From Candidatus Latescibacterota bacterium (lineage in GTDB: Bacteria; Latescibacterota; UBA2968), in contig OZ240241.1 in assembly GCA_965198115.1 (NCBI GenBank), forward strand, positions 3,872,001-3,936,000: DNA of 64,000 bases, written 5' to 3'. The notes under the pieces were generated by a model. The model did not search any database, was not told the DNA's origin, and was given only the letters and a program-made list of their open reading frames with translations. Below, in pieces: positions 30,414 through 63,280 of the stretch (its first letter is position 1; each line of letters opens with the position of its first letter). Both the position numbers and the translations under genes were made by a program.

Positions 30414-30489
30414 AGTCCGCTTCAGCGGACGGAGTTTATCCTGAGCGCAGTCGAAGGGCTGCAGTAGCGTGAGACTTCAGTCCCACGCG
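30414..30489. repeat. Palindrome doublet with a 24-nt micro-element in the spacer (30434-30457)
   Basis: AGTCCGCTTCAGCGGAC..[GTTTATCCTGAGCGCAGTCGAAGG]..TAGCGTGAGACTTCAGTCCCACGCG. Confidence 0.75.
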
Positions 30490-58634: not shown

Positions 58635-58935
58635 CTACAGTGATCTCGTCAGATATCGATCCCACAGATCCTCCGCGATGTCGAAATAGCTTTCCTGAAC
58701 ACCCAGCTTCTCGAAATACTGGCAGATCCGCTCCACGTCCCTCACCAGAAACTGAAACGCGTTCGGATTCTCTGGCGGACTCACGGCCTGCGGGAAATCG
58801 ATGACACGAAAGTCACCCTCCCAATACAGGATGTTGAAGGGCGATAGATCGCCGTGGATCAGATCGTAGGCCAGGAACGTGGCCACGTTTTCGATGATGC
58901 GATCGAACAGGAGCCGCCCTTCACTCCGTTCTGGA
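58635..58935 (-). pseudogene. C-terminal fragment of a RIO1-family kinase
   Basis: LIHGDLSPFNIL, VIDFPQAV and RDVERICQYF motifs; the N-terminal lobe is missing. Confidence 0.82.
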
Positions 58936-59708
58936 ACCGCTCGAGCCCGGGATCGAATCGATTCAGACCGCCGTCGGTCCCCACCCAGATAAATCCCGCG
59001 TCGTCCTCGATCAGACTCGTCACCGTGTTCTGACTCAGGCTGGCCGGATTGTCCGGCTCGTGGTAGTAACGTTTGAAACGTCCCGTCGTCGGATCCAACC
59101 GATTCAGGCCATCGTGCGTCCCCACCCAGATGTTCCCCCGTCGGTCCTCGAGCAACGCATAGATGCGCCCGTCGCTCAGACCGTCATCTTCCTCAGACGG
59201 CGGATAGCTCTTGAACTCCTCCGTGGACGGGTCGAAGCGGTCCAGGCCTTCCCCGAACGTACCCACCCAGATGATCTGGTCGCGCGAGACGTGAAGCGTG
59301 AACACGGCGTCGCTCGACAGTCCTCCCTCGGCAGTCTCGTCGTGCCGATATCCCCTGAAGCTGTCGGTCCGTCGATCGTAATGGTTCAGACCACCCGAAA
59401 TCGTCCCGATCCAAAGATTTCCCGCCTCGTCCTCCACCATCTCCATCACATTGCTATCACTCAGACTCGCCGGATTGTCCGCCTCAGGTTGATACGTCTT
59501 GAACGTATACCCATCGTACCGAACCAACCCACTCGGCGTACTCAACCACAAAAACCCCAGATGATCCTGGATCATCCATCGGATGGCATTAACCGGCAAA
59601 CCGTCTTCCACCGAAAACTGGCGAAATCGGATGGGCTCTGCGCTGCTTGTGGAAGATCCAAATAGCAGCGTCACACACAGGAGCATAGACCGTATCAGAA
59701 ACGTCATC
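58936..59708 (-). pseudogene. N-terminal fragment of a hybrid two-component sensor (Reg_prop beta-propeller)
   Basis: Signal peptide; FSVEDGL, QDHLGFLW, GLVRYDG and repeated SLS.N..ED..G.IWVGT..GLNRFD; truncated at the RIO fragment. Confidence 0.82.
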
Positions 59709-60002
59709 GTTCGACCTTTGTTCGGTGAATGGCGTCGTCGAATCACAGGAAAAAGATAGGGAAAGGTCCCGTCCCGATACAAGAACCCGCAGCTCGATGC
59801 GAATCCCGTAATCGTCCCAGTCCACAAGGGAATTAGAAGGACCCCTAACACAAAATCCCATCGGTGCAATGAAAAGCGGGCCCGAACGTGTGCTCGAGCC
59901 GTAGAACAACTGCGATACCTATTTCACCTTTCTTTTTTCACTTGTCATAGGTCAATGGTCAATGCACCCGTTATGCGCGCAATGCCAAGTTCGCGGCCGG
60001 GA

Positions 60003-60136
60003 GGTATATCCTGAGCCCCTCGACGGAGCCTGTGCCGAGCGAAGTCGAGGTGCTCGGGATAAACTCCGTCGAAGGGCCGCTCCCACCGGCAACGGGGCGA
60101 GCCATCTGTGAAGCTTGCCCCGAGCGAACGCGAGGA
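60003..60136. repeat. Triple-nested micro-elements (60003-60076) plus a fourth copy (60113-60136)
   Basis: TATCCTGAGC[CCCTCGACGGA{GCCTGTGCCGAGCGAAGTCGAGGT}GCTCGGGATAAAC]TCCGTCGAAGGG. Confidence 0.8.
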
Positions 60137-60308
60137 GTCCACCCTCTACCGCCGACCGCCCACTTCCAAAGAGGCGAAGCCGCCTCTCCGTCCCCCGTCA
60201 ACCACCTGCCCGCCGTAGCGACGCAGTCACGAAGGTGGGTCAGCTGCATCACTCTCCGTATATTGCTCCGTCGTCCGGCCCTTCTACCAAACTCCGGAGA
60301 GCCACAGC

Positions 60309-61622
60309 TTGACTCGACTACCCGCACTATCGCAGAGCCCCCTCCTCCGCTACATCACCTTCCCCATCCTGTACGTCGCGCAGGGCCTCCCCTACGGTCT
60401 CGTCCTCGTCGCGCTGCCGGCCTGGCTGGCCAAACAGGGCCTCGGCACAGCCGAAATCGGCGGATTCACGGCCATCGTTGCGCTTCCCTGGAGCCTAAAG
60501 CTCATCGGCGGACCACTGATGGACCGCTTCTGCTATCTCCCGATGGGTCGGCGTCGGCCTTGGGTCGTGGGTGCCCAGATTGGCCTGTTCATCTCATTCT
60601 GCACCCTGGCCGCCGTGCCCGATCCCGCTTACAACCTCACTCTGCTGGCCGCAATCGGATTCGTCACGAACATGTGCGCCGCCTTCCAGGACGTCGCCGT
60701 CGACGGAATGGCCATCGACGTCGTCCCTGAAGATCAACGCGCGCGCGCGAACGGCTTCATGTTCGGTGGACAGGGATTGGGGATCGCATTCTCAACGGGC
60801 GTCGGGGGCACCGTGATGAGCAGCCACGGATTAGGCGCGGCCATCGCGCTCAACGCCTTGTTTCTCGCAGTCATCGTCCTCTTCCCGATTTGTCTGCGAG
60901 AACGGCCAGGCGAAAAGCTGCTCCCCTGGACCGAAGGCACCGCATCCCCTGAATCCATGGAGATGCAGCTCCACAGCTGGGGAGACATCTTCCGCAGCCT
61001 CTTTCGCGTGGTCGTGTTGCCCGCCAGCCTGATCGGGGGCGCACTCAACTTCCTCTACCGTGGAGGCGAGGGCATCACGTGGACGGTCATCCCGGTCCTG
61101 ACCATCCAGGAGTTGGGCTGGCAGGATGCCGACTATTCTCAGATCCAGGCTTATGCGGGTGTGGCTTCTAGCATCGTCGGCATGGTCGTCGGCGCAACCC
61201 TCGTCCACTGGTTGGGCGGTCTCAGATGCGTTCTGGGGACCGTCATCCTGATGATCGTCGTTCAGGCAGCAGCTGGCATTTTCACCGACCTCTGGTACGA
61301 TCCGACATACGTGACCGCCTATTTCTTCGCACTCAACATCCTCGGGATCGTCTTCGTCGTTTCGATCATCCCCGTCTTCATGACCATCTGCTGGAAGAAG
61401 GTTGCTGCGACACAGTTCTCTTTATACATGGCCCTCGCCAACCTCGGAACCTCAGCCGGCGCAGCCGTCACCGGCCCCATCGACGCGGTTCTCGAGTATA
61501 ACGAGATCTTCCTGGCCACCGCCGCCCTCGGTATCGTCCTGATCGTCCTGACAAAGATGGTCCGAATGGACCGCCACGCTGAGAGGTTGGAAGAGATCGA
61601 CGCTGAAACGGCTGCGGCGTAG
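60309..61622 (+). CDS. AmpG-like MFS transporter
   Basis: LYVAQGLP, LPWSLK...PLMDR, GRRRPW, QDVAVDG and ATQFSLYMAL.NLG motifs. Confidence 0.9.
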   Translation: MTRLPALSQSPLLRYITFPILYVAQGLPYGLVLVALPAWLAKQGLGTAEIGGFTAIVALPWSLKLIGGPLMDRFCYLPMGRRRPWVVGAQIGLFISFCTLAAVPDPAYNLTLLAAIGFVTNMCAAFQDVAVDGMAIDVVPEDQRARANGFMFGGQGLGIAFSTGVGGTVMSSHGLGAAIALNALFLAVIVLFPICLRERPGEKLLPWTEGTASPESMEMQLHSWGDIFRSLFRVVVLPASLIGGALNFLYRGGEGITWTVIPVLTIQELGWQDADYSQIQAYAGVASSIVGMVVGATLVHWLGGLRCVLGTVILMIVVQAAAGIFTDLWYDPTYVTAYFFALNILGIVFVVSIIPVFMTICWKKVAATQFSLYMALANLGTSAGAAVTGPIDAVLEYNEIFLATAALGIVLIVLTKMVRMDRHAERLEEIDAETAAA

Positions 61623-61757: not shown

Positions 61758-63131
61758 GAGCTATAACCAAAAGGTGTGGAAAAAGAGAAAGGGCGACCCT
61801 ACCCTTCCCGTGAGATAGTTGATTCACACAAAACCGGGTGAGAGGCCCGGTTGGGAAGGAGGATCGCCGTGAAGGAACATACGCATAGAGCCCCATTGAA
61901 GTCCATGCCGACGTGGGAGACGGTTGACGATTGGATCCGTGAAGAGATCCAGGGCCGGTTCCAGTTCATTCTGGAGGAGGAGGCGACCGCGTTCTTGGGC
62001 CGGTCGTGGTATGAGCGCCGAGCCGAGGTCGATAGCTCCACGGGCTACAGGAACGGCTACGGCAAGCCCCGGCGTCTCTCGACGAGCTGCGGAACGATCA
62101 AGGTCCGGCGTCCCCGGGTTCGTGGTCTGGAAGAGCGGTTTGAAAGCCGCATCCTCCCCCTGTTCGCCCGGAGAACCAGGGCCATTGGAGATCTGCTTCC
62201 CGACCTTTATCTCCACGGTCTCTCCCAGGGCGACTTCGAGTTGTCTTTGCGTGCGCTGCTCGGTGATGGCGCGCCGCTTTCGCCGACCTCGATCGCTCGT
62301 CTTCGAGGGAAGTGGGAGGTCGACTTCCAGGACTGGAAAGAAAGGCGTCTGGATAATCGCGAACTGGTCTACGCCTGGGCTGATGGCATCTACGTCAAAG
62401 CCGGGCTCGAGCGCGAGAAGGCGTGTCTGCTGGTCGTGATCGGCGCGATGAGCGACGGCAGCAAGGAGATCCTGGCGATAGAACCCGGTTATCGAGAGTC
62501 TACAGAATCCTGGCTCACGGTGCTACGGGATCTCCGGGATCGCGGGCTCGAACATCCTGTCCTGATCGCCGCGGACGGGAATATGGGCATCTGGGCGGCC
62601 GTTGATCAGGTCTGGCCAGAGAGCCGGCAACAACGGTGCTGGAACCACAAGATCCTCAACGTGCTCGACAAGGTCGCCAAGCGTGCACAGGCTGAAGCCC
62701 GCGCACTGCTCGTCCAGATCCCCTATGCCGGCACGAAAAAGGAGGCCGAGAAGCTCCGGAAACGCTTTGCCGCACGGTATCGCTCACAGTTCCCTGCCGC
62801 CGTGGAGACGCTCGAAAGAGACTGGGATCGGATGGTCACGTTCTACGACTTCCCGAAGGAACACTGGAAACACCTGAGAACCACGAACGTCGTCGAGAGC
62901 CCCTTTGCTTCCGTTCGGCTTCGCACAAACGCCGCCAGGCGATTCAAGAAAGTCAGGAACGCCACGACTCTCATCTGGCGTACGCTCAAGGTCGCAGAGA
63001 GCCGATTCAGGAAACTCACCGCGCCACACTTGCTACAACAAGTCTACGATCAGAAACACTCAACCGGACCGCAGGTCGAAGCCGGGAAGATGGCCGCCTG
63101 ATTTCTTTTACACACCTATTGACCTGAGCTC
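61758..63131 (+). mobile_element. IS256-family IS (type A), intact copy
   Basis: Same IRs as 7122-8494; 9-bp TSD CCCGGTACG (61749-57, 63132-40). Confidence 0.94.
61905..63101 (+). CDS. IS256-family transposase
   Basis: YRNGY, WADGIY, QRCWNHK and RTTNVVESPF motifs; the start could be 61869 or 61905. Confidence 0.93.
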   Translation: MPTWETVDDWIREEIQGRFQFILEEEATAFLGRSWYERRAEVDSSTGYRNGYGKPRRLSTSCGTIKVRRPRVRGLEERFESRILPLFARRTRAIGDLLPDLYLHGLSQGDFELSLRALLGDGAPLSPTSIARLRGKWEVDFQDWKERRLDNRELVYAWADGIYVKAGLEREKACLLVVIGAMSDGSKEILAIEPGYRESTESWLTVLRDLRDRGLEHPVLIAADGNMGIWAAVDQVWPESRQQRCWNHKILNVLDKVAKRAQAEARALLVQIPYAGTKKEAEKLRKRFAARYRSQFPAAVETLERDWDRMVTFYDFPKEHWKHLRTTNVVESPFASVRLRTNAARRFKKVRNATTLIWRTLKVAESRFRKLTAPHLLQQVYDQKHSTGPQVEAGKMAA

Positions 63132-63280
63132 CCCGGTACGCTTCTTAGCCGCCTGTCCTGAGCTTGTCGAAGGGGGATCCATTCTCGCCACAATCGCAGT
63201 TCGCTGGCGGCGCCAGACAAAAATGGACCCCGGCTCAACACACTGCCGGGGTGACATTGATTGTCGCGAGTGTGTAAGCG

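Follow-up and report, generated by a model that had tools for sequence, protein, structure and literature searches.

The hairpin nest at positions 60003..60076 of the window, which is the whole stretch of 64,000 nucleotides analysed here and forms part of one 8.43-Mb contig of the source genome (G000), consists of three 24-nt repeats lying one inside another, all within a fourth, REP-like repeat. That the nest was built by successive insertion is well supported and highly probable. The fuller reading, in which the three successive insertions were made by a single-stranded DNA hairpin mobilised in trans by a small GIY-YIG nuclease together with host repair, has roughly an even chance of being right. 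The 24-nt unit is likely to be among the smallest mobile DNAs. It is of the kind of the REP- and SRM-like hairpin repeats, and it is marked by filled and empty sites, by nesting and by a three-base signature at its junctions.

Layers of the nest

The nest occupies the spacer between a divergent propeller-domain gene (58859-59869, minus strand) and an MFS transporter gene (60309-61622, plus strand). The first-pass annotation had described three 24-nt layers inside one another at this place, and the sequence is exactly as it claimed; three 24-nt units are indeed present, but a fourth, outer layer was missed, which is the REP-like host. The left part of this host, at 59990..60003 on the plus strand, has 24 empty-like junctions elsewhere in the source genome, and the right part, at 60076..60090 on the plus strand, also has empty-like junctions and staged copies there. 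The minus strand of the host begins with what we take to be a GTGG/GTAG-type tag, a label from the REP literature. The outer unit, which has a GTACAT-type head with one change, lies on the plus strand with its head and 5' arm at 60004..60016 and its 3' arm at 60068..60075. The middle unit is on the minus strand, with its 3' arm at 60017..60024 and its GTTTAT head and 5' arm at 60052..60064. The inner unit, at 60028..60051 on the plus strand, is made of a 6-nt GCCTGT head and an 18-nt hairpin with tandem GA, a GNA loop and the stem subtype GCC/GGT.

Two triplets are left when the 24-nt units are removed. The GGA at 60025-60027 (plus strand), which is 5' of the inner unit, occupies the spot of the GNA-loop complement of a free middle-type unit, and GGA is found in 0 of the 39 empty-like junctions of this site. 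The TCC at 60065-60067, which is a GGA on the minus strand 5' of the middle unit, replaces the outer unit's own loop. Both triplets are absent as loops of free units on that strand: free middle-type units have the own-strand loops GAA (12), GGA (4), GCA (3) and GTA (1) and never TCC, and the loops of free outer-type units read GGA (5), GCA (1) and GA (1) on the plus strand. As the leftover triplets differ from the loops of free units, each insertion is accompanied by a changed loop triplet. The earlier description of the middle unit as a minus-strand copy of the element at 30434 is right as to type, but its treatment of the leftover GGA/TCC as the unit's ordinary loop is not.

Partial forms of the nest are found elsewhere in the source genome, where the host is empty in 20 copies, holds one whole outer unit in 3 and holds the outer and middle units in 4. 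The pair of middle and inner units occurs three times in this genome, in different outer hosts, and once in the congeneric genome G001 (L063); the full nest occurs once. The G001 locus (G001:C45 near 201568) is a four-layer nest in which the same inner pair, with a lengthened inner loop, lies within a different outermost host. The order of events would be the host, then the outer unit, then the middle unit on the opposite strand and at last the inner unit.

Confirmation of the locus in raw reads, proposed in the first-pass annotation, was obtained in part. Short-read contigs from two runs (X1 and X2) of one sample, possibly the source sample, match both halves (59300-60038 and 60027-60356) with 0 differences, but the whole nest is bridged by no single contig of these runs. 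Another study supplied a contig on which the inner two layers are present in a different context. To judge from these contigs, the nest is not an assembly artefact. No orthologue of the nest interval was found in 20 relatives, in which the matches were repeat copies or a gene edge, the nest junction had 0 matches in viral contigs, and no RNA data set was listed as containing the sequence.

Other copies of the unit are present in the window. The element at 30434..30457 (plus strand) is an uninterrupted GTTTAT-headed unit of the middle-unit type, which has GGA in front of it and lies inside another REP-like stem, the unfilled form of which has TTC there. At 63151..63173 (plus strand), a 23-nt variant with a two-pyrimidine loop is a clean insert in a GTCAC-headed REP whose triplet is kept. 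A Mutator-family transposase (61851-63101) adjoins this variant, and, elsewhere, contigs give an unfilled allele for a 1382-base segment (L294 13170-14553). A degenerate unit-like copy at 60113-60136, which is 79% identical to the inner unit and has GAA before it, lies 85 bases downstream of the inner unit.

Architecture and distribution of the unit

The unit has a 6-nt head and an 18-nt body, in which three stem bases followed by GA lead into a short inner stem with a GNA loop, after which come GA and three further stem bases; in most units the outer stem is of 3 bp and the loop of 2-3 nt. A scan with a loose unit pattern gave 160 copies in the 8.43-Mb source genome, far above the 3, 1 and 3 matches in three block-shuffled genomes. 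The heads of these 160 units are GCCTGT (64), GCCTGC (37), GTTTAT (23) and others, a distribution that follows a loose pattern which itself selects GCCTG/GTTTA-type heads; sister repeats of the source genome, which have a CGTCA head on the same body, were counted apart. A strict set of 145 units passes a stem and head filter.

Position 9/22 of the outer stem covaries, being T-A in 99, C-G in 54 and otherwise in 7 of the 160 loose units. Standard DNA folding of a lone unit (-2.2 kcal/mol, z -0.17) gives no support for a hairpin, so the argument for the hairpin is made by this covariation and by the non-canonical, sheared GA pairs and GNA loops. An Rfam scan of the window gave no match.

The exact 24-mer is present in 6 of 31 relatives, with 99 copies in the source genome and 15 in the congeneric one. 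In the GTDB collection at least 121 stretches contain it, and the 80 matches listed come from at least 12 phylum-level groups, such as Acidobacteriota, Nitrospirota, Pseudomonadota, Bacteroidota, Chloroflexota, Patescibacteria and Omnitrophota. Within the source genome 40 of the 160 units lie inside crude long ORFs, which come from a mechanical map, cover 81% of the genome and in many cases are probably not genes. The 16-mer counts of this genome are dominated by a repeat of about 249 copies, probably a large insertion-sequence family.

Filled and unfilled sites

When the units were excised in silico, the resulting junction was present elsewhere in the source genome for 96 of 158; random excisions outside ORFs gave such a junction in 8 of 150 cases. 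The hosts are several REP-like stems, short tandem repeats and repeats of the unit's own kind. Filled and unfilled forms differ by the length of one unit, with free spacing, in 55 of the 71 units that have unfilled forms. Orthologous intervals were aligned for 10 of 34 loci searched by BLAST, and one was informative; in the other nine the spacer was unalignable or the whole repeat cluster was absent. The informative site (L025) is the kind of empty-site orthologue that the first-pass annotation had proposed to seek: the host repeat is present in both genomes, filled in the congeneric genome and empty in the source genome, with a net difference of +24 and the triplet GCC versus GGA. Strain-level empty alleles were not seen in the reads.

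The excised junctions, the orthologous empty site and the staged intermediates together support the proposal that a 24-nt unit has inserted repeatedly and in both orientations. The lack of a clear TSD is likewise upheld, the ambiguity at the junction being at most one nucleotide, a G. Insertion into folded DNA and into the unit's own loops was part of the same proposal, and 27 hairpin-loop nests were listed among the 145 units, of which 23 are antisense and 4 sense, but the unit has many other targets besides loops of its own kind. The loop in these 27 nests is in effect swapped for a cassette of triplet plus unit. Copies that belong to one host family do not count as independent events.

Two Acidobacteria genomes have one REP that is mostly unfilled, with at least 11 filled copies among the 150 matches listed, 3 of them at +24 and 8 at +25 with an extra A. 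Filled and unfilled forms are both present for other REPs in genomes of other phyla, and for the Aequorivita host no unfilled copy was found by pattern search. A joint across a second three-layer nest, seen in run X2, may derive from a paralogous free unit and was set aside.

Bases changed at the junction

The insertion is usually not the clean, simple 24-nt event first supposed. Of 55 filled/unfilled pairs, 14 keep the 5' triplet and 41 have a changed one, which is GGA in 29; the net length remains +24. Mismatches to the closest unfilled allele number 4, 4, 35, 29, 38 and 5 of 55 at positions -5, -4, -3, -2, -1 and +1, respectively. The 3' junction is sharp, with G as the next base in 139 of 160 units. 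The triplet change recurs in more than ten unrelated hosts (judged by eye), at the orthologous site and in two genomes of other groups. Outside the source genus a single extra A is the commonest addition, and A is found at -1 in 80 and GA in 48 of 123 units.

The flank depends on the body. GA precedes 88 of 114 units of 24/25 nt, 7 of 24 units of 23 nt, 0 of 18 long-body inserts and 0 of 11 GTAG-body inserts. These longer inserts without the GA flank (0 of 29) have the same GCCTG-type head and partly the same host junctions, so an upstream cut alone cannot explain the triplet. Inversion of the target triplet as a general cause was rejected, and so was copying of the unit's own loop, since the GGA flank is seen with GAA, GCA and GTA loops.

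The hairpin bodies without the GA flank can be followed further. The GTAG-body inserts have 11 copies in the source genome, none with the flank, and an ACCTG head on a GTAG-type hairpin body lies in the window at 60204-60238, inside a short tandem repeat. A third family, found at 18 places of G000:C1 (e.g. 1382830 and 7676194), has a GCCTG-type head on a longer GAGTAG...GTATCGA hairpin and is inserted cleanly, with the host triplet kept. This longer body also flanks GIY-YIG genes at 214165 of the source genome and in the congeneric genome (L281).

Small GIY-YIG genes and their hairpins

The source genome has two stand-alone GIY-YIG genes, for both of which PF01541 was confirmed, and both are bracketed by tandem-GA hairpins. 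The gene at G000:C1:509002-510652 (L022, L188) lies between inverted hairpins with the unit's core, one loop of which holds a unit; it is the best cognate in this genome, but a Mutator-family (IS256-type) element interrupts it, with what seems to be an 8-bp duplication. At G000:C1:214165-214455 (L021), a GIY-YIG frame lies between direct hairpin repeats and, by eye, has no standard start codon just upstream of its first motif. The partner GIY-YIG protein had no match in NCBIfam.

Metagenomic homologues of the second gene have tandem-GA hairpins within 250-300 bases in 63 of 80 cases, against 170 of 1600 shuffles. The commonest hairpin at these 80 genes has the same 24-nt layout as the unit with another head, and a unit-type core is found in 22 of the 80 flanks, whereas shuffles have it in 28 of 1600 cases and random ORF flanks of the source genome in 36 of 500; the whole unit is present in only 4 of the 80. 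Hairpin nests adjoin some of these genes, which form a clade encoding proteins of about 95 amino acids. At five loci (L228, L235, L241, L257 and L263) GIY-YIG genes and unit-like hairpins lie just downstream of what resembles the 3' end of a tRNA or tmRNA. No named mechanism was known to the first-pass annotation, and no paper on the unit was found, but the architecture is shared with these hairpins flanking small GIY-YIG genes.

Co-occurrence among the 31 relatives is loose. One genome has 2 units and no GIY-YIG match (G007), another has 6 units and a weak, distant match (G010), and four (G011, G020, G021 and G028) have such a GIY-YIG gene and lack the exact 24-mer. A search of the phylum with the truncated GIY-YIG at E 1e-15 returned only the query itself, a threshold that was too strict; the truncated query had matches in 7 of 25 unit-bearing genomes, and at five matched loci whose flanks were inspected, three had hairpins, one had none and one was mis-located. 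Head types group by clade in a quick version of the GIY-YIG tree, which is no proof of co-evolution because kin share head labels. GIY-YIG enzymes hydrolyse DNA, and we know of none that joins DNA. A role of these enzymes in the mobility of the unit is put forward as a candidate only, for which the chances seem balanced.

Proposed mechanism

The element would be a gene-less hairpin of single-stranded DNA on which a small GIY-YIG nuclease acts in trans, together with host repair. The closest described enzyme is SsnA, a 94-residue GIY-YIG protein that recognises a CGTC-headed hairpin in single-stranded DNA by binding it and cleaves upstream, 4 nt 5' of the CGTC tag as counted from the oligonucleotide and its 20-nt product, with one homologue cutting one base earlier (PMC11893778). 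By analogy, the nuclease of the unit may bind its hairpin on single-stranded DNA and, if the behaviour of SsnA carries across subfamilies, may cut a few bases 5' of the head. The 6-nt head aligns by length with the SsnA tag, so that the changed zone would fall between cut and head, and the change of bases -3 to -1 is consistent with strand-specific cleavage of single-stranded DNA 5' of the unit. GGA might travel along with the unit, so that a cassette of 27 nt takes the place of three target bases, or might be written in later by cut-and-patch exchange among copies. The targets would be other folded or repeated single-stranded DNA.

A bolder reading is offered tentatively and is rather doubtful: the 24-27-nt hairpin may represent a new minimal class of mobile element, a gene-less satellite of non-Ssn GIY-YIG single-strand nucleases, which spreads across phyla nearly unchanged, parasitises repeats and itself, and swaps three target bases for GGA by cut-and-patch. 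Were it true, transposition would here proceed with no DDE, HUH, serine or tyrosine recombinase, and several hairpin bodies would have in the GCCTG-type head a portable tag for mobility. If the GIY-YIG link holds, mobile DNA would be known down to a size of about 24 bases, and the sequence-specific single-strand nucleases would gain a new family. The unit points to a named candidate clade of enzymes of about 95 residues and supplies a base-precise junction signature, with a sharp 3' end and three changed 5' bases.

Alternative explanations

The unit could instead be moved in trans by a tyrosine transposase (RAYT or IS200 TnpA), which would excise and rejoin a small single-stranded circle, guided by the 6-nt head; what the GIY-YIG genes have in common with it would then be the hairpin as a binding site only. 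HUH enzymes of this kind act on single-stranded DNA next to hairpins, cutting it and joining it again with no TSD, and their ends can vary with the choice of cut site, yet an equal-length swap of three target bases is absent from the models as published in the available text of these sources (PMC3333891, PMC6006769). Y1_Tnp matches number 75 in the source genome, among them a large IS200-like family and one RAYT-like gene, and three different hairpin bodies have the GCCTG-type head in common and are found at the same host junctions, as might be expected of a shared guide. Against this, no unit-type hairpin was seen by eye in the flanks of 18 Y1 places out of the 75 matches, the REPs at the RAYT-like gene are of another kind, and the units have no GTAG tag. 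On balance this explanation is unlikely. About ten IS200 tnpA matches in the source genome are interrupted at one same point.

Another explanation makes the 24-mer not independently mobile today. A few old insertions would have founded composite repeats, which were spread whole by amplification and gene conversion of host REP families, and GGA and the antisense nests would have arisen later, either through conversion or because loop plus unit was inverted locally between the arms of the host. The near-identical recurrence of some composites fits this, such as the host with outer and middle units found 4 times and 12 copies of the 23-nt unit after GCC, and one host site has both kept and changed triplets with different unit subtypes. 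Inversion in place of a sense-inserted GGA plus unit would give antisense nests, and TCC/GGA and TTC/GAA are reverse complements; inversion fails, however, where GGA, GGC or AGA of the filled copy stands against TTC/TTT, CGT/TGT, GCC, ACC or TCT alone in the unfilled host, and GCA/GTA flanks number 0 among 160 units though such loops are common in hosts. The nearly invariant unit, moreover, is found at host-specific points in more than ten unrelated host repeats (by eye) and in at least 12 phylum-level groups. This composite origin is improbable.

Local slippage, fold-back duplication or assembly error, with which the strong self-complementarity of the nest region (-19.3 kcal/mol, z -4.31) and the unbridged nest would agree, is very improbable and already largely refuted, because the layers differ in head and stem, each matching its own genome-wide subtype, and also in view of the matching read contigs of both halves and the recurrence of the inner pair in different outer hosts of both genomes; the first-pass annotation had itself named slippage and fold-back as possible refutations, which were not borne out.

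Comparison with known systems

Several described repeats come close to the unit. Hairpins flanking small GIY-YIG genes are a published theme for the Ssn/SRM system, in which mobility of the repeats was raised as a hypothesis only (Chenal et al. 2025, PMC11893778). Like the NTS/SRM repeats of Ssn, the unit has a 6-nt oriented head and a hairpin and is associated with small single-domain GIY-YIG proteins, and the mapped SsnA cut just 5' of the head corresponds to the zone of changed bases. In contrast, the heads of the unit are GCCTG/GTTTA and not GTC-tagged, its body has tandem GA and a GNA loop, and filled and empty sites, nesting and flank replacement are not reported in the available text on Ssn (PMC11893778). 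The published degenerate SRM pattern matches 0 of the 145 strict units and 0 of the 80 linked GIY-YIG flanks, so the unit does not belong to SRM, although its mode of action is likely similar to that of an Ssn or REP repeat.

The CGTC REPs lack a dedicated transposase or RAYT, and a few REP families lie inside other palindromes (Di Nocera et al. 2013, PMC3733652). These REPs are short and mostly extragenic; the unit resembles them as a short palindrome that may likewise be mostly extragenic and lack a dedicated RAYT, and CGTCA sister repeats are built on its body in the source genome. It differs in having no unpaired CGTC (TGTC, CCTC) 5' tag and no 8-9-bp stem with a 4-5-nt loop (PMC3733652), and in being one nearly invariant 24-mer across many phyla, which inserts in many repeat families and in itself and changes its 5' flank. 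With its filled and empty sites and ordered intermediates, the unit bears on the question of how REP-like repeats can multiply in the absence of a RAYT.

REPINs and BIMEs with RAYT are, like the unit, non-autonomous hairpin DNA thought to move in single-stranded form without a TSD (PMC3116915; Ton-Hoang et al. 2012, PMC3333891). In REPINs it is the doublet that replicates, and singlets are regarded as dead remnants (Bertels and Rainey 2011, PMC3116915), whereas single 24-nt units, not inverted doublets, fill the empty sites described here (55 of 71, and the orthologous site). The units also have no GTAG guide at the hairpin foot, and by eye none was seen beside a RAYT (in the flanks of 18 of 75 Y1 matches of the source genome, the one RAYT-like gene included).

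With MITEs and Rickettsia palindromic elements (PMC3733652) the unit shares the character of a non-coding insert, in its case likely moved in trans, and its 24-nt net length would keep a reading frame. MITEs are given a length of 70-300 bp (PMC3733652), and the unit is, as first noted, far below that size; it has neither terminal inverted repeats nor a TSD, and is made of an asymmetric head plus a hairpin. The literature search, which left out most subscription journals, found no description of the unit, its nesting or its flank change. The unit is none of SRM, CGTC REP, REPIN or MITE.
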